A stretch of DNA of 64,000 nt, from assembly GCA_040768985.1 (NCBI GenBank), contig JAXGLX010000002.1:4378971-4442970 (forward strand). Reading direction: 5' to 3'. Made by a program: the position numbers and the translations under genes. Shown in pieces: positions 3,362 through 63,549 of this stretch (positions are counted from its first letter, which is position 1; every line of letters starts with the position of its first letter). The notes under the pieces are model-generated. The model worked only from the letters and a program-made list of their open reading frames with translations, made no database searches and had not been told where the DNA came from. The DNA is from Acidobacteriota bacterium (GTDB taxonomy: Bacteria; Acidobacteriota; JAAYUB01).

Positions 3362-3541
3362 GTTTCTGGGAATTGTTGATAGTTGATGGTTGATTGTTGA
3401 TGGTGGTATAGGTTCGCAAGTTCACAGTTCGCCGGTTCACAGGTTCGCCGGTCTCCGTCTCCCGATTCACCGATTCACCCATTCACCGATTCACCGATTC
3501 ACCCATTCACCGATTCACCGATTCACCGATTCACCGTTTCC
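3362..3541. repeat. Mosaic intergenic repeat block, including an (SATTCACC)n octamer array at 3463..3536
   Basis: Direct reading shows TTGATGG-type heptamers, GGTTCRC units, GTCTCC units, then about 9 tandem octamers GATTCACC/CATTCACC. Confidence 0.9.
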
Positions 3542-4537
3542 TCAGTGCTGCCGCTTCAGGATGAAGTCGGTGATCTGCACCAGCGTCTTGCGGTGCGGCG
3601 ACGACGGGAAGGTCAGCAGCTCGGTGCGGGCCTGGTCGGCGTAGGCGTGGGCGCAGGCCATGGTCCGCTCCAGGCAGCCGGCGCGGCGCAACTCGCGCAG
3701 CAGGGCGTCGGGCTGGACGCTGGTGAAGCCCTGCTCGGCCACGACGGTTTCCACCATGCGGCGCGCGGCGGCGCCGTCCGACTGGAGCAGGTAGATCACC
3801 GGCAGGGTCAGCTTTCCCTCGCGCAGGTCGCCCATGACCGGCTTGCCCAGCTTCTGCTCGTCGGCGGTGTAGTCGAGGACGTCGTCCACGACCTGGAAGG
3901 CCAGGCCCAGGTTGAGGCCGATCCGGGTGAGCCGGTCGATGGTCGCGTCGTCGGCGCGGGCCGAGACGGCGGGCAGCGCGGTCGCCGCCGAGAACAGGTG
4001 CGCTGTCTTGCGGGCGGCGATGTCGAGGCTGGTTTCGGCGGTGAGGTCCAGCCGGCCCAGGACGTCGGCCTGGATCAGTTCCCCCTCCACCATTTTCCGG
4101 CTCACGTCCAGCAGCACGTCGAGGATCCGGAAGTTCTGCTGGGCCACCCCGACCTGGAACGCGGTCATGTACAGCCAGTCGCCCAGCAGCACCGACATGT
4201 GGTTGCCGTAGGCGGCGTTGACCGACGGGGAGCCCCGCCGGGTGTCGGCCTCGTCGATGATGTCGTCGTGGACCAGCGAGGCGGTGTGGATCAGCTCCAC
4301 CAGCGCCCCCAGCGGGTAGAGACGCTCGGGCTCGCAGCCGATCATGCGGCCGGCCAGGATCAGCAGCGCCGGCCGCAGCTTCTTGCCGCTCTGCCGGGCG
4401 ACATAGCGGCCGAGCTGGTCCACGATCCCCACGGAGGAATCGAGGTAGCCGTCGAAGCAGGTCTGGACCCGCTCGAGATCGGGCTGGATGCGCTTCAGGA
4501 TCAGGTTGGCGTTCACGGGCACATTCCTTTTCGTCAA
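3542..4537 (-). CDS. Polyprenyl (hexa/hepta/octaprenyl) diphosphate synthase
   Basis: Two DDxxD motifs (LVHDDIIDEAD and FQVVDDVLD) and overall IspB/HepT-like sequence. The start is uncertain: TTG at 4537, or in-frame GTGs 15-21 nt downstream. Confidence 0.9.
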   Translation of the reverse strand: MTKRNVPVNANLILKRIQPDLERVQTCFDGYLDSSVGIVDQLGRYVARQSGKKLRPALLILAGRMIGCEPERLYPLGALVELIHTASLVHDDIIDEADTRRGSPSVNAAYGNHMSVLLGDWLYMTAFQVGVAQQNFRILDVLLDVSRKMVEGELIQADVLGRLDLTAETSLDIAARKTAHLFSAATALPAVSARADDATIDRLTRIGLNLGLAFQVVDDVLDYTADEQKLGKPVMGDLREGKLTLPVIYLLQSDGAAARRMVETVVAEQGFTSVQPDALLRELRRAGCLERTMACAHAYADQARTELLTFPSSPHRKTLVQITDFILKRQH

Positions 4538-4576: not shown

Positions 4577-4800
4577 GAATCGGTGAATGGGTGAATCGGT
4601 GAATGGGTGAATCGGTGAATCGGTGGATCGGGAGACGGCAGACGAGACCCAAGCCCTGAACCGCGAGCCCCGAGCTCCGAACCCTGAGCCCCGAGCCCCG
4701 AACCCCTTAACGCTTGTGCCGATGTCCGAATTCCGATGTCCGATGTCCTAAGTCCGCGTCACGGGAACGAGCCTCTAGCCTCGAGTCTCGAGCTTCGATC
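4577..4800. repeat. Mosaic intergenic repeat block
   Basis: In order: (GGTGAATS)n, GGGAGAC units, CCCGAGC/CCCGAAC units, (CGATGTC)n, then GCCTCTAGCCTCGAG modules. Confidence 0.9.
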
Positions 4801-5335: not shown

Positions 5336-5360
5336 GGGAGCCTCCGGGATTAACAGTCAA

Positions 5361-5486
5361 TTGGTGCATAGGTGAATCGGTGAATCGGTGAATGGGTGAA
5401 TCGGAAGACAGAATGAACGTACCGGCCAGCCGGTGAACCTGTAAACCTGCGAACCTGTGAACCTGTGAACCCTCAACTCACAACCC
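5361..5486. repeat. Mosaic intergenic repeat block
   Basis: (GGTGAATS)n at 5363..5404, then (GAACCTG)n, then CTCAAC units. Confidence 0.9.
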
Positions 5487-6284
5487 TCAACTCTCAACAT
5501 CTTGCCGGAACCGGCCGAACAGCCGCCAGAAATTTTCCGTGGTGCGGCGGGCCAGCTCGGCCTCGTCCAGGCCGTGCACCCGGGCGAGCGCCGCGGCCAC
5601 GTGGCGGACGAACGCCGGCTCGTTGCGCCGCCCGCGCACGGGCACCGGCGCCAGGTACGGCGCGTCGGTCTCCACCAGCAGCCGGTCCGCCGGCACCGCG
5701 GCGGCGGCGGCGCGGACGTTGTCGCCCTTGGGGAACGTGATGGGGCCGGCGAACGAGATGTGGAACCCCAGGGCCAGGCAGCGCGCCGCCATGGCCGGGT
5801 CGCCGGCGAAGCAGTGCATGATGCCGCCCGGGTTGGGCGGCGTCCAGTGACGCTCCAGGATGTCCAGCAGGTCGGCGGTGGCGTCCCGGGCGTGGACGAT
5901 CACGGGCCGGTCCGCCTCCCGCGCCATGCCCAAGAGGTCGCGGAAGACCCCGCGCTGGACGTCCCGCGGGGAGTGGTCGTAGTAGTAGTCAAGCCCGATC
6001 TCGCCCACCGCCCACACCTCCGGTTCCCGCAGCCGATCCGCCAGGCGGGCGTACCACGCCTCGGAGGCGATCCGGGCGTCGTGGGGGTGGATGCCGGCGG
6101 TGGTGGCGAGGCCCGGGTGACGGCGGCACAGCGCCAGCGCCTGGTCCATGGAGCCGCTCTCCGGGTGGGCGTTGCCGATGGCGAGGATGAACGCGATGCC
6201 GGCGTCGCGCGCCCGCTCCAGCACGGCGTCACGGTCGGCGTCGAAGGCGTCCATCTCGAGATGGGCGTGGGAGTCGACGAGCAT
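5487..6284 (-). CDS. tatD: TatD-family metal-dependent hydrolase/DNase
   Basis: Internal ATG at 6284..6282 of ORF 5487..6737. MLVDSHAHLEMDAF with the HxH motif; TatD-like GEIGLDYYY and VETDAPYL. The start overlaps the larC stop as TGATG. Confidence 0.9.
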   Translation of the reverse strand: MLVDSHAHLEMDAFDADRDAVLERARDAGIAFILAIGNAHPESGSMDQALALCRRHPGLATTAGIHPHDARIASEAWYARLADRLREPEVWAVGEIGLDYYYDHSPRDVQRGVFRDLLGMAREADRPVIVHARDATADLLDILERHWTPPNPGGIMHCFAGDPAMAARCLALGFHISFAGPITFPKGDNVRAAAAAVPADRLLVETDAPYLAPVPVRGRRNEPAFVRHVAAALARVHGLDEAELARRTTENFWRLFGRFRQDVES

Positions 6285-15344: not shown

Positions 15345-15629
15345 ATGGCAGGGGAAGGGTGAATCGGCGAATGGGTGAATCGGGAGACGGGAGACGAGAG
15401 AGGGGAGACGGCAGACGGGAGACGTGGGAGACGGGAGACGTCGGATGGTAAATGATTGACCGCAGACGAATCAACCATCCACGATCAACTATCAACGATC
15501 AACTATCAACGATCAACTATCAACGATCAACTATCAACGGTCAACTATCAACCATCAACCCTCCACGAATGGGAACGAACCCCGAACACCGACTCACCGA
15601 TTCACCCATTCACCCATTCACCCATTCAC
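15345..15629. repeat. Mosaic intergenic repeat block
   Basis: (GGTGAATS)n, (GGGAGAC)n, (ATCAACKATCAACT)n, then CATTCACC units. Confidence 0.9.
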
Positions 15630-16802
15630 CTACCCCAATACCCTAAAGAACATGCATTTGAGATAGTGCGTCTCCGGCATCGCCGGCAGCACCGGGTGGT
15701 CCAGCGCCTGGCACCCCTCGGCCACGAGCTGCACGTCGCGGCCCGCCTCGGCCGCGGCGGCGATCGCCTCGCGGAGCAGCATCTCCCGGGTGGTGAACGA
15801 CGAGCACGACGCCGCGGCCAGCACCCCGCCGGGTGTCACCCGGGCCAGCGCCAGGGCGATGTGGCGGCGGTAGATCGCCAGGGCGTCGTCGAGGAAGCGC
15901 TTCTTCTTGGCAAACGCCGGCGGGTCCAGGACGACGAAATCGAAGCGGCGCGTCTCGGTGGCGAGATACGTCTCCACGTTTTCCGTGACCGTCTCCAGCC
16001 GGTCCGCCCAGCCGTTGGCCGCGGCCGAGGCCCGCGCCAGCTCCAGCGCCGCCGCGTCGCCGTCGACGCACACGGCGCGGACGGCGCCGGCGGCGAGCAG
16101 GGTGTGGGCCCAGAGCCCGGAGTAGCTGAACAGGTCCAGGACGGACTCGCCTTCCCGGACCAGGTGGCCGAGCAGCCGCCGGTTCTCGCGGTGGTCCAGG
16201 AAGAGGCCGGTCTTGCGCCCGGCCCAACAGTCCACCACCATCCGGACGCCGTCGTGGTCCACGGTGACGGGCCCGTCCCAGCGGCCGGAAAGCAACCGCG
16301 TCTCCACGGCGAGCCCTTCGAGGCGGCGGAGCAGGTTGGTGTTGCGCAGGATCACCGTGTCCACCCCGAGGCGGCCCGACAGCTCTTCGGCCACGAGGTC
16401 CGTCCACCGCTCCATGCCGGCCACGCTCTGGGAGATCACGAGCACCGGGCCGTAGCGGTCCGCCACGAGCCCCGGCAGGCCGTCGCTCTCGCCGTACACC
16501 AGGCGCGCCACCGCCGCGCCGGGTCGGACCCGCTCCCGCCACGCCAGCGCCGCCGCCAGACGCCGCCGCACCAGCGCCGCGTCGGGCTCGCGGTCGGCCG
16601 AGTCCACGACCCGGACCGCGATGTGCGACAGCGGATTGGCGTAGCCCACGCCCAGGAACTCGCCGGCGCCCGACTCGAGGCGCACCGCCTCGCCGGGCGT
16701 GACGCCGGCGAGCGCCGCCGAGTCGAAGTCACCGCGCCAGGCCCAGCGATGGCCGCGGCGGATGCGGGTGTGGTAGTCCTTTTCCATACGGAGCGTGCGC
16801 AT
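15630..16802 (-). CDS. rlmI: Class I SAM-dependent rRNA (cytosine-C5) methyltransferase, RlmI-like (PUA + MTase)
   Basis: GLPGLVADRYG, KTGLFLDHRENR, LDLFSYSGLW and VVLDPPAFAKKK. ATG at 16802; an alternative TTG lies at 16808. Confidence 0.85.
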   Translation of the reverse strand: MRTLRMEKDYHTRIRRGHRWAWRGDFDSAALAGVTPGEAVRLESGAGEFLGVGYANPLSHIAVRVVDSADREPDAALVRRRLAAALAWRERVRPGAAVARLVYGESDGLPGLVADRYGPVLVISQSVAGMERWTDLVAEELSGRLGVDTVILRNTNLLRRLEGLAVETRLLSGRWDGPVTVDHDGVRMVVDCWAGRKTGLFLDHRENRRLLGHLVREGESVLDLFSYSGLWAHTLLAAGAVRAVCVDGDAAALELARASAAANGWADRLETVTENVETYLATETRRFDFVVLDPPAFAKKKRFLDDALAIYRRHIALALARVTPGGVLAAASCSSFTTREMLLREAIAAAAEAGRDVQLVAEGCQALDHPVLPAMPETHYLKCMFFRVLG

Positions 16803-17035
16803 GCCCAAAGTGTAGCATAGGAAAACTTTTCACCACAGAGGACACAGAGGGCACAGAGGACGCAGAGAGGGGATTCTGGCTTTTTAATTATTTAGCCGAG
16901 TCACGGATTGCTGGAATCCAAGCAATTTCATTTTTTTCACAAAATTACAAATTATTATCGGACGGAGCGGCCCTGCGTTCGTTTGATCAATTAGATGCTG
17001 ATGCATCAGAATCGTCCAAGTGGGGGAGACACGAA

Positions 17036-17434
17036 GTGAAGCGGATGGATGCTCTCAACATCATCACCGGTAAAGTGTTGACCGCCGCATTTCGGGTGCA
17101 TTCTGCCCTGGGGCCGGGCTTGCTCGAGAGCGCCTACCAGGCGTGTCTGGCTTACGAACTGCATCAGATGAGGTTGAAAGCGGATGTTCAGGTCGCTCTG
17201 CCCGTCACCTATGACCAGATTCGGCTGGAGGTCGGATACCGTTTGGATATCGTAGTGGAACAGCAGGTGATTCTGGAATTGAAAGCTGTCAACCAGTTGC
17301 TCCCGATCCATGAAGCCCAACTGCTGTCCTATTTAAAATTGAGCGGACTGCCAGTGGGGCTCCTGATCAACTTTCACGAGGTCCGCCTCAAGGATGGCAT
17401 TCGGCGCCTCATCAACACGAAGCCATCTCCCTGA
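17036..17434 (+). CDS. GxxExxY protein (PD-(D/E)XK nuclease fold), copy 1
   Basis: GLLESAY matches GxxExxY. D..E.K core in RLDIVVEQQVILELKAV. GTG start with a GGGGGAG RBS. The gene and its AT-rich upstream region have visibly lower GC than the neighbours. Confidence 0.85.
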   Translation: MKRMDALNIITGKVLTAAFRVHSALGPGLLESAYQACLAYELHQMRLKADVQVALPVTYDQIRLEVGYRLDIVVEQQVILELKAVNQLLPIHEAQLLSYLKLSGLPVGLLINFHEVRLKDGIRRLINTKPSP

Positions 17435-17553
17435 TCAGCCTAGAACACCCCCGGGAAATGGAAGACGTGGGTCGACGTCTCCAACACAGATGCCTTCTGC
17501 GTCCTCTGCGTACTCCGCGGTGACAATAATTGTGTCTTCGGTGCACGCGCTGC

Positions 17554-19301: not shown

Positions 19302-19790
19302 ATGGCTGGAAAACAGGAAGTGCACGAGGGGATCGTTCAGCTCGAGAAGGGTCTCAAGCTGATTCACAAGGGCAAGTACCAGGAGGCCGTGCCCGTGTTC
19401 AAGGCGCTGCAAGGCCGCAGCGACCTGCCGCCCGGGCTCAGCCAGCGGGCCGGGGTGTACCTCCGGGCCTGCCACCGCCATACGGCGCCGCCGCCGAAAG
19501 CGTCCACCGAGTTCGGCGACCTGCTGGACCGGATCGCCTGCCAACTGAACCTGGGCGAGACCGCCGCCGCGGCCGAACTGCTCAAGAAGGCCCGCAAGCA
19601 GGATCCGAAGTCCGCCCAGGTGGCCTACCTGGAGGCGGTGCGGTTCACGCTGGAGCGGAACATCGACAAGGCGATAGTGGCGCTGGCCGAGGCGCTGAAC
19701 CTCGATCCCGCCATCCGGTTTCAGGCACGGAGCGACATGGACCTGGAACCGCTCCACCACCTGGACGAGTTCCGCCGCCTCATCGGCTGA
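19302..19790 (+). CDS. TPR-like repeat protein, function unknown
   Basis: ATG at 19302 preceded by GAGGAGGA. 162 aa, helical and TPR-like (KGKYQEAVPVFKAL..., NIDKAIVALAEALNLDP). Confidence 0.55.
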   Translation: MAGKQEVHEGIVQLEKGLKLIHKGKYQEAVPVFKALQGRSDLPPGLSQRAGVYLRACHRHTAPPPKASTEFGDLLDRIACQLNLGETAAAAELLKKARKQDPKSAQVAYLEAVRFTLERNIDKAIVALAEALNLDPAIRFQARSDMDLEPLHHLDEFRRLIG

Positions 19791-19792
19791 CC

Positions 19793-19884
19793 GTAGTTCA
19801 GGCGTCTCGCCTGACGTAGCTCCGGCATCCTGCCTGACGTAGTTCAGGCGTCCCGCCTGACGTGGCTCAGGCATCTTGCCTGAG
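19793..19884 (+). repeat. REP-like array: 4 tandem 23-bp hairpin units
   Basis: Units GTAGTTCAGGCGTCYCGCCTGAC and GTGGCTCAGGCATCTTGCCTGAG. Each contains the palindrome CAGGCR-N4-YGCCTG. Confidence 0.9.
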
Positions 19885-21404: not shown

Positions 21405-22430
21405 ACAGTGGGGATGTTCACAGGTTCCAGGTTTGCGGGTTGATCGTTGATTGTTGATGGTTGATGGATCGTCAGTCGCCACTCCGTCCCTCGGCTTTCC
21501 ATTGACAAAAAGAAGCGCTTGGCGCCTTCGCGTCTTGGCGCGCCATCTCTTCCTCCGCGCCCTCTGCGCCTCCGCGGTGAATGATCGGGGCTCGAGACTC
21601 AAGGCTCGTTCCCAGTGATCAACGATCAACAATCAACCATCAACCAACCATCAACCGTCTCGGACATCGGACATCGGACATCGGACATCGGCACAAGCGG
21701 TTCGGGTCTCGCGGTTCGGGGTTCGGCTCCTCCGTCTCCCGTCTCCCCGATTCACCGATTCCCCGATTCACCGATTCCCCGATTCACCGACTCACCGATT
21801 CACCGACCCACCGATTCCCCTCTCAACCATCAACCGTCCCAGACTTCACCACAGAGAGGCACAGAGGACACAGAGTTTTTTTAATGTTCTGAACCCTAAT
21901 CGAAAACCGTCTCCCGTCTCTCCTCTCCCGTCTCCCGATTCCCCGATTCGCCCTCCTCGCACTCCAAATAGCCATTAAAATATAAGCAATCACCAGTAAC
22001 CAATAAACTCGCTCCTTCTTCCCTCGCCCTTCCATTGACAATAAATGCCTTCTTGGCGCCTTCGCGTCTTGGCGCGCCAACTCTTCCTCCGCGCCCTCTG
22101 CGCCTCCGCGGTGAATAATCGAAACTCGCGGCTCGTTCCCGTAATGCGGACTTCGGACATCGGAAATCGGACATCGGCACAAGCGGTTCGGGGCTCGTTC
22201 CCAACCTCAACCTTCAACCGTATCGGACATCACCGCAGAGGCGCAGAGGACGCGGAGGCTTTTTATGTTCTGATCCCTGATCGTAAGTCGTCTCCCGTCT
22301 CCCGTCTCCCGATTCACCGACTCACCGATTCACCCATTCACCGACTCACCGATTCATCGACTCACCGATTCACCGATTCACTAACCCTGCGAACCATCAA
22401 CCATCACCTGTTGGCGAACCGGGATCTTCC
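21405..22430. repeat. About 1-kb mosaic intergenic repeat region
   Basis: Concatenated modules: GTGAACA, TGATGGT, CGGACAT, ATTCACC/ATTCCCC, CACAGAGG and CGTCTCC. Also two copies of a ~100-bp block, CCATTGACAA..CTTGGCGCCTTCGCGTCTTGGCGCGCCA, at about 21480 and about 22010. Confidence 0.9.
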
Positions 22431-22501
22431 CCATGCCGCTTGTGATACTATTGAATCAAACGAACGGCCCGTGGCGACGGCCATCCTGCAGGAGGGATGC
22501 C

Positions 22502-22999
22502 ATGGCAACCGATTTTCAAGGAAAAGTGATCCGAGCGCTGAACGATGTGGACCAGCAGAACATGGACCTGCTGGACCAGGTGATCGATGCGGCGAACGAG
22601 GTCGCCTCCGGCGATACGGCCAACGTGACCATCGACGAACCCCAGCCGGAGGGGCCCGGCGATGTGTCCCCCGGTGAGATGCAGCGCTGGGACACCATCG
22701 TGGGCGGCGGCGATGTGCCTCCCGGTGAAACGCAGCGCTGGGACACCATCGTGGACGGCGGCGAAGTGCCCCCCGGTGAAATGCAGCGCCGGGACACCAT
22801 CGTGGGCGGCGGCCAGGGCGCCTCGACGGCCGGCACCGGTGGCGTGGCCCTGCTCGAGTTCGCCAAGGACGCCATCCAGACAGCGGCCTCGAACATCTCG
22901 GGCGCCGGCACAGAAGAGATCCAGGCGCGGAAAATCGCCGAGCGCAAGATGGAATCGGCCGACGAAGCGGCCGACGACGACGACGACGAGAAGAAGTGA
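22502..22999 (+). CDS. Acidic orphan protein with 3 x 17-aa tandem repeats
   Basis: ATG preceded by GGAGGG. 51-bp repeats at 22658..22810 encode GDVSPGEMQRWDTIVGG, GDVPPGETQRWDTIVDG and GEVPPGEMQRRDTIVGG. C-terminus is DEAADDDDDEKK. I recognise no family. Confidence 0.5.
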   Translation: MATDFQGKVIRALNDVDQQNMDLLDQVIDAANEVASGDTANVTIDEPQPEGPGDVSPGEMQRWDTIVGGGDVPPGETQRWDTIVDGGEVPPGEMQRRDTIVGGGQGASTAGTGGVALLEFAKDAIQTAASNISGAGTEEIQARKIAERKMESADEAADDDDDEKK

Positions 23000-23700
23000 G
23001 GAGTTGGGAGATAGGAGATAGGAGATAGGAGTGAACCGTTCGCGTGCTCGTGATTCGTAATCGTGATCGTAATCGAGGCTCGAGACTCGAGGCTGGAGGC
23101 TCGTTCCCGCCATGCGGACTTCGGACATCGGAAATCGGACATCGGTCAGCCGGCCTTCACCACGGAGTACGCAGAGGACACAGAGTTTTTTTAATGTTCT
23201 GAACCCTAATCGAAAACCGTCTCCCGTCTCCCGTCTTACGTCTCCCGTCTTACGTCTCCCGTCTCCCGATTCCCCGATGCTCCCTCTTCAATGACAAATG
23301 ACAAATGAAATATGACCAATGACAAATGGATCGAAGATGGTGCCAGGCTCTGTCACAAATCGGACATCGGACAGCAGGATCCGGGTCTCGCGGTTCGGGG
23401 TTCGGCTCTCGTCTCCCGTCTCCCGATTCCCCGATTCACCCTCCTCGCACTCCAAATAGCCAACATAATATCAGCAATCATCAACAACCAATACACTCGC
23501 CGCTTCTTCCCTCGCCCTTCCATTGACAATAAATGCCTTCTTGGCGTCTTCGCGTCTTGGCGCGCCATCTCTTCCTCCGCGCCTCGGAGGATTCACCGCA
23601 GAGGCGCAGAGGACGCGGAGAAGACTCTGATTGTGTTCGAACAACAATTGGATCTGCGCTGTGTCCTCAGTGTCCTCTGTGGTGAGTCTTTAGGGTGGAT
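23000..23700. repeat. Mosaic intergenic repeat region, including inverted copy B (23043..23232) of the ~195-bp element
   Basis: The reverse complement of 23043..23232 matches 18988..19180. Further modules: ATGACAA units, CGGACAT, ATTCACC, the CCATTGACAATAAATGCCTTCTTGGCG block, and CGCAGAGG. Confidence 0.9.
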
Positions 23701-23749: not shown

Positions 23750-23934
23750 CTCGCTCCCGTTGAATGGGTTACCTGGATTGCCGTTCGACGCATGTCCTTT
23801 CGGGCTCTTTGAGGCGCGCGACCCGCGCGCGAAACCACGGCGGACCCGCTGCCGGTCCGCCGGCCCAAATCCAGGGAATCGGGACTGACGGCTTTTCCTG
23901 AATCGTACCGTTTGTTCTCGAATCTTCCGTTCGG

Positions 23935-24048
23935 GTGGCTCAGGTCTCCCGCCTGAGGTAGTTCAGGCGTCTCGCCTGACGTGGCTCAGGCATCTTGCCT
24001 GAGACGAACCGAACCGGCGAAACGGGTAGTTCAGGCGTCCCGCCTGAG
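23935..24048 (+). repeat. REP-like array: 4 units of the 23-bp hairpin repeat (3 tandem, a 22-nt spacer, then 1)
   Basis: GTGGCTCAGGTCTCCCGCCTGAG, GTAGTTCAGGCGTCTCGCCTGAC, GTGGCTCAGGCATCTTGCCTGAG ... GTAGTTCAGGCGTCCCGCCTGAG. Confidence 0.9.
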
Positions 24049-24950: not shown

Positions 24951-25085
24951 CGTGGCTCAGGCATCTTGCCTGTAGCTCAGGCCTCCGGCCTGCTGTAGCT
25001 CAGGCATCTTGCCTGATGTGGCTCAGGCCTCCGGCCTGATGTGGTTCAGGCGTCCCGCCTGATGTGACTCAGGCGTCCCGCCTGA
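24951..25085 (+). repeat. REP-like array: 6 tandem hairpin units of about 22-23 bp
   Basis: Units are of the type GTGGCTCAGGCATCTTGCCTG, TAGCTCAGGCCTCCGGCCTGCT ... GTGACTCAGGCGTCCCGCCTGAC. The array starts immediately after the rpsI stop. Confidence 0.9.
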
Positions 25086-25210: not shown

Positions 25211-26245
25211 TTGGTCGCTGTAACCATGAAAGCACTGCTCGAAGCGGGCGTCCACTTCGGGCACCAGACCCGCCGCTGGAATCCCAAGATGAAGCCTTAC
25301 ATCTTCGGGGACCGCAACGGCATCCACATCATCGACCTGCAGAGAACCCTGCAACTGTTCAAGGAGGCGACGGACTTCGTCGCCGAGAGCGCCCGCCAGG
25401 GGAAGCGGATCCTGTTCGTGGGCACCAAGCGGCAGGCCCAGGACGCGGTCAAGGAAGAGGCCGAGCGCTGCGGCATGTACTACATCAACAACCGCTGGCT
25501 GGGCGGCCTGCTCACCAACTGGGCCACCGTCAGCCGGTCGCTGGAAAAGTACAAGGCCCTCGAGGAGAAGAAGGAAGCCAACTACGCCGACGAGATCTCC
25601 AAGAAGGCCGTCGCCCGCCTGGAGCGGATCCGCAAGAAGCTCGAAAAGAACCTGTCCGGCATCCGTCATCTCGACAACATCCCGGAGCTGGTGATCATCG
25701 TCGACCCGAGCAAGGAGCAGATCGCGGTGCTGGAGTCCAGGAAGAAGGGCGTGCCCATCGTCGCCCTGGTGGACACCAACTGCAACCCCGAGCCCATCGA
25801 CTACGTGATCCCGGGCAACGACGACGCGCTGCGCTCGGTGCGGCTCATCGTCTCGAAGCTCTCCGACGCGGTGATCGAAGGCGTGACCATGCGGAAGTCC
25901 GAGCTGGAACAGGCGGCCAAGGAAGAGGCCACCGGCGAGAAGCCCGAGACGCCCGAGGGCGTGCTCGAGGAGATCCCCGCCGCGGCCGCGCCCGCCCAAC
26001 GGCCCGCCGGTGACCGGCGTCCCGTCGGCGACCGCCGCCCCGACACCCGCCGTCCCTCCGACCGGACGCCGCGCGCCCCCCGGCCGCCGCGCAAGCACGT
26101 GCCGCGCGAGATCATCGGCGAGATGCCGCCGCCGGCCGTTCCGGGCGATGCGGCGCCCGTGGCCCCGCCGGCCCCGCCGGCCGAGCCCGCCGCGACGGCC
26201 CCGCCGGCTCCGCCGGCCGAGCCGGCCGAGCCCCCCGCCGAGTAG
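25211..26245 (+). CDS. rpsB: 30S ribosomal protein S2 with a Pro/Ala/Arg-rich C-terminal extension
   Basis: TTG start after AGGAGG gives LVAVTMKALLEAGVHFGHQTRRWNPKM, the canonical S2 N-terminus. About 100 extra low-complexity C-terminal residues (RPAGDRRPVGDRRP..PPAPPAEPA). Confidence 0.95.
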   Translation: MVAVTMKALLEAGVHFGHQTRRWNPKMKPYIFGDRNGIHIIDLQRTLQLFKEATDFVAESARQGKRILFVGTKRQAQDAVKEEAERCGMYYINNRWLGGLLTNWATVSRSLEKYKALEEKKEANYADEISKKAVARLERIRKKLEKNLSGIRHLDNIPELVIIVDPSKEQIAVLESRKKGVPIVALVDTNCNPEPIDYVIPGNDDALRSVRLIVSKLSDAVIEGVTMRKSELEQAAKEEATGEKPETPEGVLEEIPAAAAPAQRPAGDRRPVGDRRPDTRRPSDRTPRAPRPPRKHVPREIIGEMPPPAVPGDAAPVAPPAPPAEPAATAPPAPPAEPAEPPAE

Positions 26246-26271
26246 ACCGGCGCGCGCAGACGCCGGTTTCG

Positions 26272-26632
26272 GCACGCCAAGACGCCAAGACGCAAAGCGG
26301 ATTTATTGTTTTTGTCTCGGTCCGCTGCGTCTTGGCGTAGGAAGCGGATCCGGACGAGTCGAAACGGGAATTGGCCCACGAAGGCGCCAAGGCGCAAAGC
26401 GGATTTTGGGTTTTTATCTCAAGCCGGTGCGTCTTGGCGTTAGAAGCGGATCCGGACGAGTCGAAACGGGAATTGGCCCACGAAGGCGCCAAGGCGCAAA
26501 GCGGATCTTGGGTTTTTGTCTCAAAGCGTTGCGCCTGGGCGTAGAAGGGTGAATCCGGACGAACCGAAGCGATATCGTCCGTCCGAACCGAACGGGATTC
26601 AAAACAAAAAAAGTGTTCTTTGCGCCTTCGCG
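26272..26632 (+). repeat. About 3 tandem copies of a 102-bp hairpin-containing repeat, plus a tail, upstream of GxxExxY copy 2
   Basis: The period was measured from recurring CACGAAGGCGCCAAGGCGCAAAGCGG at 26377 and 26479. Each unit contains the inverted repeat CGCCAAGACGCAAAGCGGA...TCCGCTGCGTCTTGGCG around a T-rich loop. Confidence 0.9.
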
Positions 26633-26787
26633 TCGTTGTGAGCGTATTTAAGGCGCCCGGTTACGAGAGTTCTTTGATATCGATTTGAATAATTTTCGGG
26701 CCGGGATGAAAAAACCGGTGGAAAACGTCGGACACCCGCCGGGCCGATCCGTTGGATAGGGTATATCCCATCGAACGGAGGCGAAAC

Positions 26788-27189
26788 ATGACCGAAGCCC
26801 GGGTGATGACCACAAACGATGTGGCCCGCGAGGTGGTGGACGCCGCCCTGCAGGTGCACCGCGCCCTGGGGCCGGGCCTGTTGGAACGCGTCTACGAGGC
26901 GGTCCTGGCCTACGAGCTGGGCCGCCGCGGCTTGGACGTCCGGCGCCAGATGCCCGTGCCCGTGGTGTACGACGGCCGCACCTTCGACGTGGGCCACCGC
27001 CTGGACCTGGTGGTGGCTGACCGCGTGGTGGTGGAGATCAAGTCGGTGGAGACGCTCCTCCCCGTCCACTTCAAGCAGGTGCTCACCTACCTGAAGCTCA
27101 CGGGGCTGCACCTGGGGCTGCTGATCAATTTCAACGAGGCGCTGCTCCGCGACGGCCTCCACCGTCTGGTCATGGGACTGCCCGAGTAA
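26788..27189 (+). CDS. GxxExxY protein (PD-(D/E)XK nuclease fold), copy 2
   Basis: GLLERVY matches GxxExxY. D..E.K core in RLDLVVADRVVVEIKSV. ATG at 26788 after GGAGG. Clearly paralogous to 17036..17434. Confidence 0.85.
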   Translation: MTEARVMTTNDVAREVVDAALQVHRALGPGLLERVYEAVLAYELGRRGLDVRRQMPVPVVYDGRTFDVGHRLDLVVADRVVVEIKSVETLLPVHFKQVLTYLKLTGLHLGLLINFNEALLRDGLHRLVMGLPE

Positions 27190-27192
27190 ATC

Positions 27193-27585
27193 GGCTCACG
27201 AAGACGCCGGTTCAGGCTCACCAAGGCGCAAAGACGCAAAGCAGATTTATTGTTTTTGTCTTAGCCTGTTGAGTCTTGGCGTTGAAAGTGGATCCGGAAG
27301 AGCCGAACCGGGAAGTGGCTCACGAAGCCGCCAAGACGCCAAGCGGATTTTGGGTTTTTGTCTCGGGCCGTCGCGTCTCGGCGTTGAAAGTGGATCCGGA
27401 AGAGCCGAACCGGGAAGTGGCTCACGAAGCCGCCAAGACGCCAAGCGGATTTTGGGTTTTTGTCTCGGGCCGTCGCGTCTCGGCGTTGGAGAACAAACCC
27501 GGTTGATCCGGAACGTCCTCGTCCGCCCGACCCGAACGGAACTCAAAAAACAAAAAGTATTCTTTGCGTCTTGGCGTCTTGGCGA
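27193..27585 (+). repeat. About 3 tandem copies of the same 102-bp hairpin repeat, plus a tail, downstream of GxxExxY copy 2
   Basis: CACGAAGCCGCCAAGACGCCAAGCGG recurs at 27321 and 27423, giving a 102-bp period. These two units appear identical: the ORF track shows a perfect 34-aa duplication in ORF 27276..27506. Confidence 0.9.
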
Positions 27586-27765
27586 TGGATTCACACGCTC
27601 TTTAAATGAATCGGGCATGTTGTTTCGGTTTGAGGCGCAAAGACGCAACGACGGGCAGAGAATGGATCGACCGCCCGAATGTCCCGGCGCTGAAACACAA
27701 AAAATGTCTGCTTGGCGCCTTTGCGCCTTGGCGAGAAACAGAATTCTGAGTTTAGGAGATACGAT

Positions 27766-28668
27766 ATGGAAATCACTGCAGCGATGGTGAAGGAGCTTCG
27801 CGAGAAAACCGCCGCCGGCATGATGGACTGCAAGAAGGCCCTCGTGGAATGCGGCGGCGATATGGACAAGGCCGTCGACTACCTCCGCACCAAGGGCCTG
27901 GCCGCCGCGGCCAAGAAGGCCCACCGGAGCACCAACGAGGGCGTCGTCGCCGCCTGGACCGATGACGGGCAGACCCTGGGCACGCTCGTGGAGATCAACT
28001 GCGAGACCGACTTCGTCGCCCGCAACGAGAAGTTCCGCGAGCTGGCCGCCAATCTGGCCTACCACGTGGGCCAGGCCGCTCCGGCCTACGTCCGCTGCGA
28101 GGACGCCCCCGCCGGCGCCCACGACGCCACGCTCTGCCTCATGGATCAGCCCTACGTCCACGACGCCGCCCTGGCGGTGAAGGACTACGTCGCCGCCTCC
28201 ATCGCCGTGATCGGCGAGAACATCGTGGTGCGTCGCTTCGTCCGCCACCAGGCCCCGGCCGGCGGGTTCTTCGCCACCTACATCCACTCGAACCACAAGC
28301 TGGGCGTGCTGGTGGAAATCGCCGGCGCCGCCGGTGACGCCGCCCGTGAGGCCGGCCGCAACGTGGCCATGCAGGTCGCCGCGGCCAACCCGCGCTGGGT
28401 CCGCCGCGAGGACGTCCCCGCCGACGTGCTGGAGCACGAGCGGGTCATCTTCCGCGAGCAGATGAAGGAGAGCGGCAAGCCCGCCCAGGTGATCGAGAAG
28501 ATCGTCGAGGGGAAGCTGGACAAGTTCTTCAAGGAAAACTGCCTCGTGGAGCAGGTCTACATCCGCGACGACAAGCTCACGGTGAAGGCGTACCTCGAGT
28601 CGCTGGCTCCTGCCGCCGGCGCCCTCGACGTCCGCCGCTTCTCCAGACTGCAGGTTGGGGAAGAATAA
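27766..28668 (+). CDS. tsf: Translation elongation factor Ts
   Basis: MEITAAMVKELREKTAAGMMDCKKALVECGGDMDKAVDYLRTKG is the canonical EF-Ts UBA-like N-terminus. AGGAG RBS. Confidence 0.95.
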   Translation: MEITAAMVKELREKTAAGMMDCKKALVECGGDMDKAVDYLRTKGLAAAAKKAHRSTNEGVVAAWTDDGQTLGTLVEINCETDFVARNEKFRELAANLAYHVGQAAPAYVRCEDAPAGAHDATLCLMDQPYVHDAALAVKDYVAASIAVIGENIVVRRFVRHQAPAGGFFATYIHSNHKLGVLVEIAGAAGDAAREAGRNVAMQVAAANPRWVRREDVPADVLEHERVIFREQMKESGKPAQVIEKIVEGKLDKFFKENCLVEQVYIRDDKLTVKAYLESLAPAAGALDVRRFSRLQVGEE

Positions 28669-28694: not shown

Positions 28695-28728
28695 CGCCGG
28701 TCCGTCCCCACGGGCCGGCGTTTTTTTT
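28695..28728 (+). terminator. Rho-independent terminator after tsf
   Basis: CGCCGGTCCG-TCCCCA-CGGGCCGGCG gives a 10-bp GC-rich stem with a 6-nt loop, followed by T8. Confidence 0.85.
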
Positions 28729-28911
28729 CACCACAGAGACACAGAGGACACAGAGGAATTCATCTGTCATTGGGCATCGGTCATTTTTCATTTAATGGTT
28801 TTGGGACCCGGGACCTGGACTTTGTGACCTGGATGCTGAGAGTTGGGACTTGGGGCCTGAGAGTTTGGACTCGGGAGTTGGGATCCGGATGCTGAGACTT
28901 GATGCCGAAAC

Positions 28912-29270
28912 CCCAGCACCCAGGTCCCAGGTCCCAGTTCCCAGCACCCAGGTCCCAGTCCCCAGCACCCAGTCCCCAGTCCCCAGCACCCAGTCCCCAG
29001 TCCCCAGTCCCCAGTCCCCAGCACCCAGTTCCCAGCACCCAGTCCCCAGCACCCAGTCCCCAGCACCCAGGTCCCAGCACCCAGTCCCCGGTTCCCAGTT
29101 CCCAGGTCCCAGCACCCAGGTCCCAGCACCCAGTTCCCAGGTCCCAGCACCCAGTCCCCGGTTCCCAGTTCCCAGGTCCCAGCACCCAGGTCCCAGCACC
29201 CAGGTCCCAGGTCCCAGCACCCAGGTCCCAGTTCCCAGGTCCCAGTTCCCAGGTCCCAGTTCCCACTTCC
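28912..29270. repeat. About 51 tandem heptamers CCCAGNN (minus strand NNCTGGG)
   Basis: Direct reading shows CCCAGCA/CCCAGGT/CCCAGTT/CCCAGTC units without interruption. This produces open frames on both strands. Confidence 0.95.
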
Positions 29271-29442
29271 CATCATCAAAAACAGCCTCTTCTCCAAATA
29301 GCCAATAAAATATAAGCAATCACCAATAACCAATAGTTGGAAATGCCCGATGTCAAATGCCCGATGAAAAATGTCTAATGAATTCCTCTGTGCCCTCCGT
29401 GCCCTCTGTGGTGAAATCTCCCCATCCCAACCCTCGGATTCC

Positions 29443-29470: not shown

Positions 29471-29850
29471 GATCTGTTCGATTTGTGCCTCCGCGCGCCG
29501 CCGCCTGGAGTACAATTAGAACGACCGTGTATGCGGACGACGGCACAACCCACCAACCCCCTTTTCTTGAGCCGCCGTGCTCTTGACGGCGGAGCTGCAT
29601 CCTCACCACAAAGGCACAAAGAACACAAAGGCTGTTTATGTTCTGAACCCGAATCGTGAACCGTCTCCCCGCCCATTCACCCATTCACCAACCCCGCTAG
29701 TCCGAAATGCCCAATGAAAAATGACCAATGCCATATGAAAAATGATCAGTTAATTCCTCTGTGTCCTCTGTGCCTTTGTGGTGAATCCGCCTGCATTCTT
29801 TTCTATCAACTATCAACCATCAACCATCAACCTGCCCCCGAGGTAACTAA

Positions 29851-31674
29851 ATGCCCTCCACTTTCCAAGACCTGAAAACCAAAATTGACGCCAAGACCGC
29901 AACGGTCGGCATCATCGGCCTCGGCTACGTGGGCCTCCCCCTGGCCATGGCCTTTGTCGAGAAGGGCGTCCGGGTGATCGGCTTCGACGTCGACGCCGAC
30001 AAGCCCGCGCGCCTGGCGCGCGGCGAAAGCTACATCCGCCACCTCGGCGCCGACCGTGTCGCCGCCATGGCCCGCTCGGGGCTCTTCGCCGCCACCACCG
30101 ACTTTGCGCGTCTCGCCGAGCCCGACGCCATCCTCATCTGCGTGCCCACGCCCCTCACCCCCCAGCGCGAGCCCGACATGACCTACGTCACCGCGTCCGC
30201 CCGGCAGGTGCGCGCGTCTTTGCGTCCCGGCCAGCTCGTGGTGCTCGAGAGCACCACCTACCCCGGCACCACCGACGAGCTGGTGCGGGGGATCCTGGAC
30301 GAAGCGAACCTCGAGTGCGGGCAGGACTACTTTCTGGCCTTTTCCCCCGAGCGCGAGGACCCGGGGCGCGAGGACTACACCACCACCACCACGCCGAAAG
30401 TCGTGGGGGGCGTCGACGCGGCGTCGGGGGATCTGGCCCAGGCGCTCTACGACCTCGTGATCGCCCGCACGGTGCGCGTCTCCTCGGCGCGCGCCGCCGA
30501 GTCGGCCAAGCTCACCGAGAACATCTTCCGGGCGGTGAACATCGCCCTGGTGAACGAGCTCAAGATGGTCTACGACCGGATGGGCATCGACGTCTGGGAG
30601 GTGCTCGACGCCGCCGAGACCAAGCCGTTCGGCTTCATGCGCTTCAACCCCGGCCCCGGCTGGGGCGGCCATTGTCTGCGAGGCGGCGAATGGGTTCGAG
30701 TCCGGGGCCTGGGATTGAACGGGCCGGTGCGGTTCGAGGATCTCTTCGACGCGTTGAAGAATGATCAGCCCGTCGCCGTCACCCCCAAGGGAATGTACCT
30801 GCATCCCCGAGGACTCGAGGCCCTGGCGCTCGATCCGCGGTCCGGCGATGTCGACTACCTGCCGGTGGAGGTCCTGTACCGCGGATTTTACGAAGGATCG
30901 GGCGTCTGCCTCACCACCGACGACAACCGCCGCCTGTTCCTGACCGACGGTCACCCCATGCTGGTCAAGAATGCAGCAGGCTTTGAGATCGTCTCAGCCC
31001 GCGATCTTCAAGCCGGTCAGCAACTGCCTGTCTTGAGCGAGGATGAAAACCCAGAATTGTCCTTGGCGTCTTTGCGCGCCATAGAAACCCTCGCCATGAA
31101 CGAACCGGTCTATTCTCTGGAAGTTGAGCGGGCGCATACGTTCACTACGACGGGGGGCATTGTCGTCCACAATTGTATCCCGCTGGACCCGTTCTATCTG
31201 TCCTGGAAGGCGCGGGAGCACGGCGAGTCGCCGAAATTCATCGAGCTGGCCGGCGACGTGAACCTGCGCATGCCCCACTACGTGGTGGGCAAGCTCCAGG
31301 CGGCGCTCAACGACCGCGGCCGCGCGGTGAAGGGGAGCCGGGTGCTGGTGCTCGGCATCGCCTACAAGCGCGACATCGACGACCCGCGCGAGAGCCCCGC
31401 CTTCGAGATCATCGACCTGCTGCTGCAACTCGGCGCCCACGTCTCGTATCATGACCCCCACATCCCCGCGGCGCCGCGGATGCGCACCTGGCCGAAGCTC
31501 CCGCCCATGCAGAGCACGCCGCTGACCCCCGCGACCCTGGCCGGGTGCGACGCCGTCCTCATCGTCACCGACCACCGCAACGTGGATTACTCCCTCGTGG
31601 CCAAACACGCCCCGCTCGTCATCGACACCCGCGGCCTCTACCGGGCGCCGCTCCCCAACGTCGTCAAGGCATGA
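29851..31674 (+). CDS. Nucleotide-sugar 6-dehydrogenase (UDP-N-acetyl-D-mannosamine/glucosamine dehydrogenase family) interrupted by a mini-intein
   Basis: N-terminal TVGIIGLGYVGLPLAMAF Rossmann fold. The active-site motif GPGWGGH-C-IPLDP is split by 167 aa. The C-terminal domain (VLVLGIAYKRDIDDPRESP) is intact. Confidence 0.9.
   Translation: MPSTFQDLKTKIDAKTATVGIIGLGYVGLPLAMAFVEKGVRVIGFDVDADKPARLARGESYIRHLGADRVAAMARSGLFAATTDFARLAEPDAILICVPTPLTPQREPDMTYVTASARQVRASLRPGQLVVLESTTYPGTTDELVRGILDEANLECGQDYFLAFSPEREDPGREDYTTTTTPKVVGGVDAASGDLAQALYDLVIARTVRVSSARAAESAKLTENIFRAVNIALVNELKMVYDRMGIDVWEVLDAAETKPFGFMRFNPGPGWGGHCLRGGEWVRVRGLGLNGPVRFEDLFDALKNDQPVAVTPKGMYLHPRGLEALALDPRSGDVDYLPVEVLYRGFYEGSGVCLTTDDNRRLFLTDGHPMLVKNAAGFEIVSARDLQAGQQLPVLSEDENPELSLASLRAIETLAMNEPVYSLEVERAHTFTTTGGIVVHNCIPLDPFYLSWKAREHGESPKFIELAGDVNLRMPHYVVGKLQAALNDRGRAVKGSRVLVLGIAYKRDIDDPRESPAFEIIDLLLQLGAHVSYHDPHIPAAPRMRTWPKLPPMQSTPLTPATLAGCDAVLIVTDHRNVDYSLVAKHAPLVIDTRGLYRAPLPNVVKA
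30673..31173 (+). mobile_element. Mini-intein (167 aa, no homing-endonuclease domain)
   Basis: Starts at Cys275 (CLRGGEW). Block B is LFLTDGHPML, block F is VYSLEVERAHTF, and block G is GGIVVHN ending at Asn441, followed by the +1 Cys442 (CIPLDP). Confidence 0.9.
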
Positions 31675-55829: not shown

Positions 55830-56110
55830 GAGTTGAGGGGAGGGCGGTAGAATTGGCAGAATATCAGGGTACGCAGGATCAGGTAGACGTTTGGATGTTG
55901 GAAGGTTGGAAAGTTGGAAAGGTGGGATTGGGGAACGCTAAAACCTTCGAACCTTTAAACCTTCGAACCTTTGAACCTTTGAACCTTTGAACCTTCGAAC
56001 CTTCGAACCTTCGAACCTTTAAACCTTCCAACAGTACCGATTCCGATTACGAGCACGATTACGAGTGCGATTACGATGACGATTACGAGCACGAGCACGA
56101 ATGAGAACAC
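55830..56110. repeat. Mosaic intergenic repeat block; includes copy A of the promoter-like element (TAGAAT at 55848..55853)
   Basis: GTTGAG units, CGGTAGAATTGGCAGAATATCAGG..GACGTTTGGATGTTGGAAGGTTGGAAAG, (GAACCTTY)n, and ACGATT/ACGAGC hexamers. Confidence 0.9.
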
Positions 56111-63545: not shown

Positions 63546-63549
63546 TTGA

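Follow-up and report, generated by a model that had tools for sequence, protein, structure and literature searches.

The gap between rpsB and tsf

The genes for ribosomal protein S2 (rpsB) and elongation factor EF-Ts (tsf) are neighbours as a rule. In the 64-kb window, by which we mean the whole stretch of DNA analyzed, the two are separated by 1,520 nt (26246-27765), and the gap contains, in order, a tandem array of a 102-bp repeat, a gene for a 133-aa GxxExxY/PD-(D/E)XK protein, and a second, co-oriented array (Table 1). The original prediction, which had read the locus as rpsB and tsf split by 1.5 kb with an array-gene-array insert, was borne out by the profile matches, the coordinates, and Tandem Repeats Finder. 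Its assignment of the 133-aa gene to the GxxExxY family was likewise supported by scores far above the profile cut-offs (141.7 bits against 35 for TIGR04256 and 137.4 bits against 22 for PF13366), and the ribosome-binding site that it had assigned to the gene was located as GGAGG at 26777-26781, 6 nt before the ATG. Searches of the PADLOC and PHROGs libraries gave no match.

Table 1. Positions of the genes, repeat modules, and signals described in the text.
Feature	Position	Strand	Remarks
Second GxxExxY cassette	16830..17520	+	5' arm CACAGAGG x4 plus GGATTCTGGCTTTTT; 3' arm of the CCTCTGCG type
rpsB, ribosomal protein S2	25226-26245	+	Ribosomal_S2 5e-96, TIGR01011 2.6e-99; Pro/Ala-rich C-terminal extension
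Module A: head, 2.8 tandem 102-bp units, tail	26272..26632	+	U1 26272-26373, U2 26374-26475, U3 26476-26577
Outer 5' arm	26275..26313	+	Tandem CGCCAAGA octamers, then GGATTTATTGTTTTT
Module A tail	26594..26632	+	A-rich run plus CTTTGCGCCTTCGCG; head motif copied inverted
Cassette gene leader	26633..26787	+	88% mean column identity (alignment of W, X, Y, and Y2)
GxxExxY/PDDEXK_3 gene, 133 aa	26788-27189	+	PDDEXK_3 (PF13366) 3.8e-40, TIGR04256 1.2e-41
Module B: head, 2.7 tandem 102-bp units, tail	27214..27585	+	D1 27214-27315, D2 27316-27417, D3 27418-27519
Outer 3' arm	27546..27584	+	AAAAACAAAAAGTATT, then CTTTGCGTCTTGGCGTCTTGGCG; partner of 26275-26313
Module C: single short octamer-arm hairpin	27633..27735	+	Immediately precedes the tsf RBS; inverted repeats I2 and I16
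tsf, EF-Ts	27766-28668	+	EF_TS 1.9e-64, TIGR00116 1.3e-81; RBS AGGAG 27754-27758
Intrinsic-terminator-like hairpin plus T-run	28695-28720	+	After tsf; only such + strand site between rpsB and this point

Repeat modules and their predicted folding

Tandem Repeats Finder delimited the first array at 26279-26562 (period 102, 2.8 copies, 87% matches) and the second at 27215-27488 (period 102, 2.7 copies, 91% matches), in agreement with the three or so co-oriented copies predicted on each side. The modules that hold the arrays, A and B, align without a gap over 397 nt (26238-26634 and 27182-27578) with 80.4% identity, and in each of modules A, B, and C, which contain no ORF, the head and the tail are inverted relative to each other. 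Tandem CGCNAAGR octamers make up the head of each array, and the head sequence returns as its inverted complement in the array tail; the tail described earlier as common to both arrays was also found. The stretch at 27278-27488 is perfectly 102-periodic, which confirms that the downstream units D2 and D3 are identical. The recent expansion that had been deduced from this identity holds for that pair only and does not extend to the array-gene-array layout, which is older than the split of three lineages, as described below.

A regular period with a palindromic core in each unit could also be expected of a CRISPR-like or small-RNA locus, and the two differences in unit number observed between contigs could represent assembler collapse of identical units, as in an assembly artefact. 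We consider all of these very improbable, because the whole 102-bp period repeats with the inter-hairpin segments included, leaving no unique spacers; because no Rfam family was matched, either by the whole window at gathering thresholds or by the gap at E <= 1; and because more than 30 contigs that were assembled independently (JGI, ENA, NCBI, and Logan) show the same layout.

The best complementarity between a head and a tail was that of the first head (26275-26313) with the second tail (27546-27584), which extends over 39 nt with 87% matching, and this pairing of the outer arms was present in the MFE structure of the whole gap as well as in the centroid structure, with module C folding on its own. 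With the first head paired to the second tail in this way, both arrays and the gene are predicted to lie inside one long stem. The RNA folding z-scores of the six units were uneven, ranging from -2.8 to +0.6, and only about three units clearly exceeded shuffled sequence, so that the six strong hairpins of the original prediction were an overstatement. Pairing extended to 84% of the stem positions in 18 units of four lineages, with the middle of the stem often broken, and the covariation was weak (4 compensated pairs, a number reached in 6 of 500 shuffles), several stems having decayed.

As for transcription signals, a search for the sigma-70-type consensus revealed no promoter for the cassette gene or tsf in the gap, and no terminator-like site was present on the + strand at 26246-27765. 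The array stems themselves are not terminator-like, because none of them precedes a U-tract. Having no recognisable promoter or terminator, the cassette is therefore likely to be transcribed within rpsB-tsf.

At both outer junctions in the window, the 7-nt sequence GTTTCGG was examined as a target-site duplication and rejected, as it is absent from lineages X and Y, and no convincing target-site duplication was found around the insert. The direct repeat between A and B appears to start in the last codons of both rpsB and the cassette gene (CCGAGTAR), which is probably a coincidence, because GxxExxY homologues at other loci have a native Pro-Glu at the C terminus as well.

Distribution of the repeats

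Within the 64 kb, the unit-specific segments of the 102-bp repeat occur only in this gap (0 expected by chance), and a metagenome scan for the unit core returned this locus plus two other matches; the latter, in AT-rich DNA without the octamers, were rejected as chance. The 102-bp unit is therefore not a common genome-wide repeat, as judged from the window and the scan. The octamer pair CGCNAAGR, in contrast, is not specific to the gap, with 39 matches in the window against 1.1 expected, often beginning 6-30 nt past stop codons. This dispersal is what would be expected if the arrays were host elements of the REP/BIME or STRR type that stabilise or attenuate the mRNA and set the S2:EF-Ts ratio, with the GxxExxY gene as an unrelated passenger, and a precedent for such elements exists in the cyanobacterial STRR hairpins between co-transcribed genes (PMC2670836). 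We regard this explanation as rather unlikely, given that the 102-bp unit is found only beside the GxxExxY gene and given the findings in relatives and in other phyla presented below.

The window contains many families of 6-8-nt short tandem repeats. A second GxxExxY cassette is also present (Table 1), the gene of which (17036-17434) is 50% identical to that in the gap (tblastn 1.6e-38) and is bounded by inverted repeats at 16836-16867 and 17491-17515. There are far more octamer modules lacking a gene than there are GxxExxY genes, and other short tandem-repeat arms bracket ordinary genes, such as a polyprenyl synthetase gene (3542-4537), so that repeat arms are not exclusive to cassettes in this genome. 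The only Y1_Tnp ORF in the window is located 35 kb away from the gap, is IS200-like, and has end hairpins of its own.

The GxxExxY gene and its protein

GxxExxY/PDDEXK_3 is a very large family (at least 7,916 matches at E <= 1e-10 among 8,000 candidates scored) with almost no literature, and its function is listed as unknown (PMC3424549). A search of viral contigs yielded no more than 8 loci with homologues. In family alignments of 28 and 78 sequences, G30-L-L-E33-R-V-Y36, D73, and E83-I-K85 showed no variation or almost none. In the AF2 model (pLDDT 93), the cassette protein has a restriction-endonuclease-like fold: the best Foldseek match was Cas4 SSO0001 (PDB 4ic1; E 5e-3, probability 0.99, TM 0.52), and the top PDB fold matches, which reach only E >= 5e-3, were PD-(D/E)XK nucleases (Cas4 4ic1, Bax1, a splicing endonuclease, and Hjc). 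A PDB sequence search with the same protein returned nothing meaningful. The cassette protein shares a restriction-endonuclease-like core and a D...ExK motif with Cas4/RecB-type nucleases, and in a published pipeline a cas4 gene was confused with a GxxExxY domain (PMC8934634). It differs from Cas4 in its length (133 aa compared with about 200) and in having no CRISPR context, and a Cas4-like Fe-S cluster is unlikely, because the family alignments contain no conserved cysteines.

Filled and empty alleles in relatives

Relatives were gathered by exact-protein look-ups; a one-genome-per-species scan with the tsf protein yielded no useful relatives, all of the matches listed being at most 50% identical. 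The comparison of the rpsB-tsf spacing that the original prediction had called for revealed the cassette at the same site in Acidobacteriota lineages W, X, and Y, whose rpsB/tsf are 92-95% identical and which differ by 5-8% in DNA, and a spacer of 156 nt with one octamer-arm hairpin and no cassette in a sister clade. The array-gene-array layout thus predates the split of W, X, and Y, and the number of units varies from 1 to 3 per side among lineages and contigs. The dS of the cassette gene was about that of the flanking genes or somewhat higher, and its dN/dS was 0.11-0.51 between lineages; the gene is evidently maintained by purifying selection and has been passed on vertically in the three lineages. 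The leader was nearly invariant over about 110 nt before the ATG in the alignment of W, X, Y, and Y2, in which a small stem ahead of the RBS varied on both sides. Homologues at least 86% identical to the gene were all located at this one locus, and direct evidence of cassette movement was not found in this lineage.

It may be conceived from these features that the module has been domesticated and is no longer mobile, with the GxxExxY protein acting as a host nuclease, possibly an RNA endonuclease that cuts the adjacent hairpins in cis on the rpsB-tsf transcript. Vertical inheritance with the dN/dS values above, an intact catalytic triad, the strongly conserved leader, and the lack of recent paralogues would fit such a role, and the fold search also returned, though weakly, PD-(D/E)XK enzymes that cut RNA, tRNA splicing endonucleases among them. 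We nonetheless consider domestication improbable, since the sister clade does without the module with no visible replacement and since the gene is found wedged into unrelated operons in other genomes, as described in the following section.

The empty allele was represented by 12 contigs listed, with 8 places read, from two backgrounds, and in rpsB these contigs fall together with lineage X, which carries the cassette (97.5-98.8%). By alignment with the spacer of one of them (L092), its sole hairpin is the counterpart of module C. The hairpin is therefore native to the bare spacer, as the 156-nt spacer of the sister clade carries this counterpart, and the whole package is dispensable, being absent from that clade. 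The retention of one hairpin by the empty allele could be taken in favour of the arrays being host elements. Against that explanation, no allele with arrays and without the gene was seen at this locus in about 45 contigs listed (about 33 places read), and the gene-less arrays that would have counted against the original prediction were thus not encountered. The hairpin octamers and the tsf RBS region of the empty allele differ from those of the filled alleles; the empty allele did not arise by clean excision, and recombinational allele replacement is therefore as likely as deletion.

GxxExxY genes with arms in other phyla

Unrelated GxxExxY loci were compared, including those of Gemmatimonadota, Bacteroidota, and Desulfacinum. 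Octamer arms were present on both sides of the gene at 7 of 8 loci (L113; L115, Desulfacinum hydrothermale; L116; L117, Gemmatirosa; L119, Bacteroides; L120, Bernardetia; and L121), the remaining locus, L118 (Sphingomonas), having only an approximate upstream arm, and the purine-rich arm was upstream on the coding strand at all 8. Among 31 tandem-octamer pairs, 29 were located no farther than 260 nt from the gene (binomial p ~1e-24, for overlapping pairs with an effective sample of about 8 loci), and control loci totalling 835 kb contained 6 such pairs. The density of the arms beside GxxExxY genes in these phyla is about 900 times the background, which further argues against the arrays being host elements with the gene as a passenger. 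Moreover, about 25 of 29 over-called homologue proteins contained peptides that, as judged by eye, resemble translated arms. By our own reading of a dozen loci, the flavour of the arms roughly tracks protein relatedness: homologues about 60-70% identical mostly have CGCCAAG-type arms, with L115 and L116 as exceptions, and more distant homologues have CACAGAGG- or CGCAGAGG-type arms. With regard to the hairpins at these loci, Rfam returned only sub-threshold matches to eukaryotic miRNA precursors, which represent generic long hairpins, and a literature search for the arm sequences returned nothing relevant.

Elsewhere, the GxxExxY gene is wedged into unrelated operons, such as between fabD and fabG, downstream of radA, and between two genes for tRNA synthetases, which is the pattern of a selfish insert. 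The occurrence of the gene-plus-hairpin package in unrelated bacteria suggests an undescribed kind of selfish gene cassette.

Proposed origin and mode of action

It is probable, in our assessment, that the rpsB-tsf spacer represents an old insertion of a hairpin-bounded gene cassette. The cassette comprises the GxxExxY gene of the PD-(D/E)XK fold, its conserved leader and RBS, and bracketing modules with arms of tandem CRCNNAGR octamers, the purine-rich arm coming first on the coding strand. In all likelihood, it inserted beside the native octamer-arm hairpin of the spacer, which has been kept as module C. The flanking module is represented by two direct paralogues, A and B (80% identical), each of which was evidently amplified internally with the 102-bp period by slippage or unequal recombination; the 1-3 units per side among strains and the one identical pair in the window indicate that this amplification is ongoing. 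The original prediction had offered a choice between a gene inserted into a pre-existing hairpin array and a gene and array forming a single selfish unit, and each appears to be partly right, the former in that a hairpin is native to the spacer and the latter in that arms flank such genes elsewhere. The native spacer hairpin, the arms around unrelated GxxExxY genes, and the absence of gene-less arrays, taken together, indicate that the gene and the arms travel as a unit.

The excision of intervening sequences (IVSs) from rRNA by RNase III is established, and Correia elements are also cut by RNase III. In the transcript of the cassette, the outer arms and the local hairpins may form long double-stranded RNA stems, and it is possible by analogy that RNase III cuts them in the same manner. 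Such cutting would free the cassette RNA, and rpsB and tsf would end up on two mRNAs, each capped by a hairpin. At the DNA level, the arms might be extruded as hairpins or cruciforms and recognised by the predicted nuclease, and this recognition could provide a homing-like route into similar hairpins. The many octamer modules that lack a gene in this genome would then have served as landing sites or have arisen as derivatives.

More tentatively, and with some doubt on our part, GxxExxY nucleases with CRCNNAGR arms could constitute an undescribed cross-phylum class of hairpin-targeting mobile cassettes, in which the abundant octamer hairpins lacking a gene would serve as landing sites or have arisen as non-autonomous derivatives and in which 23S_rRNA_IVP genes would occupy the same kind of shell. 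If this were true, the long-known intergenic STRR-like short tandem-repeat hairpins would be footprints of GxxExxY cassettes, and the present locus may explain the origin of some of them. The filled and empty alleles, together with the counterparts in other phyla, give the GxxExxY family, for which no function is known, a concrete and testable context, that of a nuclease-family gene carried in short-tandem-repeat hairpin arms and tending to wedge into housekeeping operons. The locus also offers a natural case of an essential S2/EF-Ts operon bearing 1.4 kb of structured foreign RNA.

Comparison with known systems

IVSs with ORFs are found in the 23S rRNA of Leptospira and Coxiella, and these ORFs gave the Pfam family 23S_rRNA_IVP its name. 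The cassette resembles them in having a small ORF inside long inverted repeats that could pair in the host transcript (39-nt arms, 87%, predicted folds), in being inserted in a highly expressed housekeeping transcription unit, and in differing in presence between close relatives. It differs from them in that its host is an mRNA operon, between rpsB and tsf, and not an rRNA gene (no rRNA was found in the 64-kb window), in that its ORF encodes a PD-(D/E)XK protein and not a four-helix bundle, and in that its arms are tandem octamers with flanking modules amplified into 102-bp arrays. In the same lineage, 23S_rRNA_IVP genes are present in analogous short-tandem-repeat arms just downstream of tsf.

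The modules recall the REP/BIME elements of enterobacteria, with their RAYT transposases, and the miniature Correia/NEMIS elements of Neisseria, which are co-transcribed palindromes dispersed between genes within operons and sometimes arranged in tandem; of the present repeats, the octamer head is dispersed and the 102-bp unit is confined to one locus. Unlike REP/BIME, the modules have no associated RAYT, the sole Y1 transposase in the window (63035-63478) being an ordinary IS200-like one, and unlike in both groups, their associated gene is of the PD-(D/E)XK type. The STRRs of cyanobacteria, whose function is unknown but which have been proposed to act in translational coupling or in the stability of transcripts, are similar to the present arms in consisting of tandem 7-8-nt units that form hairpins between co-transcribed genes (PMC2670836), co-transcription being deduced in our case. 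The present arms differ from STRRs in occurring in Acidobacteriota, in the CRCNNAGR consensus of their octamers, and in their link to a specific nuclease gene family, which is unreported for STRRs in the literature searched. A likeness to integron cassettes, which is architectural only, is seen in the small, promoterless-looking ORF co-oriented with the surrounding transcription and in the imperfect palindromes of equal polarity on both sides; GxxExxY cassettes, in contrast, are found one at a time within housekeeping operons and do not form arrays at an attI site.

Gene and hairpin modules between rpsB and tsf

The original prediction of a GxxExxY gene, with its own GGAGG ribosome-binding site, lying between two same-orientation 102-bp arrays and separating rpsB from tsf by about 1.5 kb was confirmed. 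The gap was 1,520 nt long and contained a PDDEXK_3 gene of 133 aa with GGAGG 6 nt upstream of its ATG, and Tandem Repeats Finder detected the 102-bp period, in a common orientation, in 2.8 copies upstream (87% matches) and 2.7 copies downstream (91% matches). The expected pair of identical downstream units was also present, as 27278–27488 was perfectly 102-periodic. Each array begins with a head, made up of two or three CGCNAAGR octamers in tandem and then GGATTTWKKGTTTTTG, and ends in a tail (AAAAACAAAAAGTRTT, then CTTTGCG...) representing the head's inverted complement; the internal units each consist of the head repeated plus an imperfect 11+5-bp stem. The upstream and downstream modules (A and B) were 80.4% identical in register, and a third, short module of the same design (C) precedes the tsf ribosome-binding site.

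The strongest complementarity within the gap was between the A head (26275–26313) and the B tail (27546–27584), with 39 nt at 87%, and in the whole-gap RNA fold (MFE and centroid) this pair closed a stem enclosing both arrays and the gene. The supposition of six strong hairpins was not borne out, because folding z-scores of the units ranged from −2.8 to +0.6. Among 18 units of four lineages, 84% of stem positions were paired, the mid-stem was often broken and compensatory changes occurred at 4 stem pairs, a number reached in 6 of 500 shuffles. No Rfam model matched the cassette hairpins. The gap yielded no sigma-70-like promoter and none of its stems was followed by a U-tract, the sole terminator-like site found being 3′ of tsf. 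The cassette (gene and flanking modules) may be co-transcribed with rpsB and tsf. RNase III cuts the long stems of rRNA intervening sequences and, by analogy, the long stems here could be processing or stability elements of that type.

Features in the window
Feature	Position	Remarks
Intergenic repeat regions (examples)	3375–3540, 4577–4706, 5359–5498, 15381–15630, 21440–22380, 55940–56100, 57494–57704, 63686–63930	
Pair bracketing polyprenyl synthetase gene	3462–3540 / 4577–4631	short repeats
Second GxxExxY element	16830–17520	encloses gene
Second GxxExxY gene	17036–17434	50% identical
23-bp palindromic arrays	19783–19883, 23934–24003, 24955–25085	GCTCAGGCATCTCGCCTGA type, tandem
~80-nt dispersed segment	21500–21580, 22035–22115, 23520–23570	CCATTGACAAnAA...CTTGGCGCCTTCGCGTCTTGGCGCGCC...
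188-aa ORF	22433–22999	no Pfam match
51-bp coding repeat	22657–22813	3.1 copies, 90%, within 188-aa ORF
rpsB	25226–26245	
S2 C-terminal extension	25940–26245	~100 residues, Pro/Ala/Arg-rich
Module A	26238–26634	
Upstream 102-bp period	26279–26562	
GxxExxY gene	26788–27189	
Module B	27182–27578	
Downstream 102-bp period	27215–27488	
Module C	27633–27735	
tsf	27766–28668	
Gene-less shells	28728–29420, 29604–29795	
CCCAGTT array	28913–29272	7-nt unit, in first shell
UDP-glucose dehydrogenase gene	29851–31674	607 aa, split by mini-intein (Intein_splicing domain)
70-bp unit	60016–60356	intergenic, x4.9, 98% identity
IS200-like element	within 62929–63660	end hairpins CCCTCGCCTTCAGGCGAGGG
Y1 transposase ORF	63035–63478	

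The 102-bp unit is not genome-wide. Its specific segments (GATTTTGGGTTTTTGTCTC, GGATCCGGAMGAG...) and tail were confined to the gap within the 64 kb (chance expectation, none), and a metagenome-collection scan with the conserved core returned this locus and two further matches, rejected as chance in AT-rich DNA. The octamer head is dispersed, with CGCCAAGR-CGCMAAG matching 39 times in the window versus 1.1 expected, at about 10 further intergenic sites, several of them beginning 6–30 nt past a stop codon.

Inheritance and loss in relatives

The exact cassette protein was found on 15 metagenome contigs, between rpsB and tsf in 10 of 10 places read; outside the species group, no tsf relative exceeded 52% identity among the matches listed. 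The rpsB and tsf genes separated four lineages at 92–99% nucleotide identity. The gene was present in W (the window's own lineage), X (95% identity) and Y with Y2 (89–90%), and was intact, with D73, E83 and K85, in every cassette-bearing lineage; its dN/dS was 0.11–0.51, its dS was similar to or higher than that of the flanks, and the ~110 nt preceding its start codon were nearly invariant. W, X and Y shared the array-gene-array layout with 2–3 units upstream and 1–3 downstream, and X had one additional tail copy. The modules have expanded locally in tandem and the expansion is still polymorphic. Part of the variation inside W could reflect identical units that the assembler collapsed.

The gene is lacking in Z and Z3. 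In the Z clade (8 places read out of 12 contigs listed), the spacer was 156 nt with a single octamer-arm hairpin that aligns with module C, and the tsf ribosome-binding region differed; no allele with arrays and no gene was seen among the relatives' places read. Since Z groups with X in rpsB (97.5–98.8%), either Z lost the cassette or recombination replaced the allele. Several observations speak against an actively mobile element at this locus: recent paralogues were absent, no target duplication was found, the empty allele is no clean excision product and further short tandem-repeat arms are numerous in the genome, one pair surrounding a polyprenyl synthetase gene. The insert is a conserved nuclease-family gene with hairpin modules that is dispensable and vertically inherited.

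The S2 extension encoded by rpsB varies in length between relatives (S2 of 317–344 aa) and holds 9- and 18-nt repeats.

Gene and arms in other organisms

The main new result is that GxxExxY homologues of unrelated organisms are bracketed by similar arms, the purine-rich arm lying upstream on the coding strand.

Arms of GxxExxY homologues at loci on other contigs
Locus	Source	Arms	Context
L113	metagenome contig	CGCCAAG/CGCAAAG	between two tRNA synthetase genes
L115	Desulfacinum hydrothermale	CACAAAGA CACCAAGA CACTAAGA	hairpins, two upstream, one downstream
L116	metagenome contig	CGCAGAGG	
L117	Gemmatirosa	CGCAGAGG	hairpins either side
L118	Sphingomonas	CGCGAAGG, approximate, upstream; no downstream arm seen	between fabD and fabG
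L119	Bacteroides finegoldii	CACAGAGG	after radA
L120	Bernardetia	CACAGAGA	
L121	viral-collection contig	CACAAAGA/CACGAAGG	

Of the 31 tandem-octamer pairs at these eight loci, 29 lay no more than 260 nt from the gene, in a zone comprising 12% of the sequence (binomial p ~1e-24, with an effective sample of only about eight loci because the pairs overlap); six loci passed the strict tandem-pair pattern, and 835 kb of unrelated control loci contained only 6 pairs. Furthermore, of 29 homologue proteins that had been over-called, about 25 carried, as judged by eye, peptides resembling translated arms (e.g., RRQDAK, SHAKPQSRQDA, LCVFAPLRE), and more distant homologues on viral contigs had inverted arms of other short tandem units. 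The gene and arms are associated across phyla.

The second GxxExxY gene in the window has arms of another flavour, with CACAGAGG x4 then GGATTCTGGCTTTTT on its upstream side and repeats of the CCTCTGCG type on its downstream side, the CACAGAGG and CCTCTGCG octamers being inverted relative to each other. It is antisense to both neighbours (methyltransferase and MFS transporter genes). Downstream of tsf, the two gene-less shells are bounded by 5′ arms of the CACAGAGG type and 3′ arms of the CCTCTGTG type; in relatives (L091, L101, L129, L130), the tsf–ugd spacer has one or two 23S_rRNA_IVP genes instead, and such genes directly 3′ of tsf in this lineage have analogous shells (GTTCRCAA octamers; GTTGAGG heptamers). 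The adjoining UDP-glucose dehydrogenase is 441 aa without an intein in lineage X, and 918 aa with a LAGLIDADG-bearing intein in L003 and L130.

The AlphaFold model of the protein was confident (pLDDT 93), and its closest solved fold was the Cas4 protein SSO0001 (E 5e-3, TM 0.52), with weaker matches to Bax1, tRNA splicing endonucleases, lambda exonuclease and Hjc. Searches of PDB sequences, PADLOC and PHROGs with the protein gave no finds, and a superfamily survey lists PDDEXK_3 as of unknown function with multiple horizontal transfers (PMC3424549). The putative nuclease might act on the arms and thereby spread the cassette.

The closest analogues include ORF-bearing rRNA intervening sequences, REP/BIME and Correia elements, and STRRs, cyanobacterial hairpins between co-transcribed genes (PMC2670836), whereas the likeness to integron cassettes is architectural only; none of these fits the cassette as a family. 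The gene-arm association was not described in the literature searched, which covers part of published papers. The cross-phylum package has a fair chance of being a distinct, undescribed element class.

Other repeats in the window

Intergenic DNA throughout the window is composed of about 10 families of 6–8-nt tandem repeats (CCGATTCA, GTTGATG, TCGGACA, CGTCTCC, AACCTTCG, CGATTA...), each in both orientations and often as nested inverted pairs. The 70-bp unit is itself made of GTTTGAAG / GTTGGAA short repeats, the 23-bp arrays flank rplM-rpsI on both sides and lie upstream of glmU, and the ~80-nt segment, in three copies, has a complementary octamer form beside a TTGACA motif. The IS200-like element is inserted between two directly oriented CGCCAAG-type modules.
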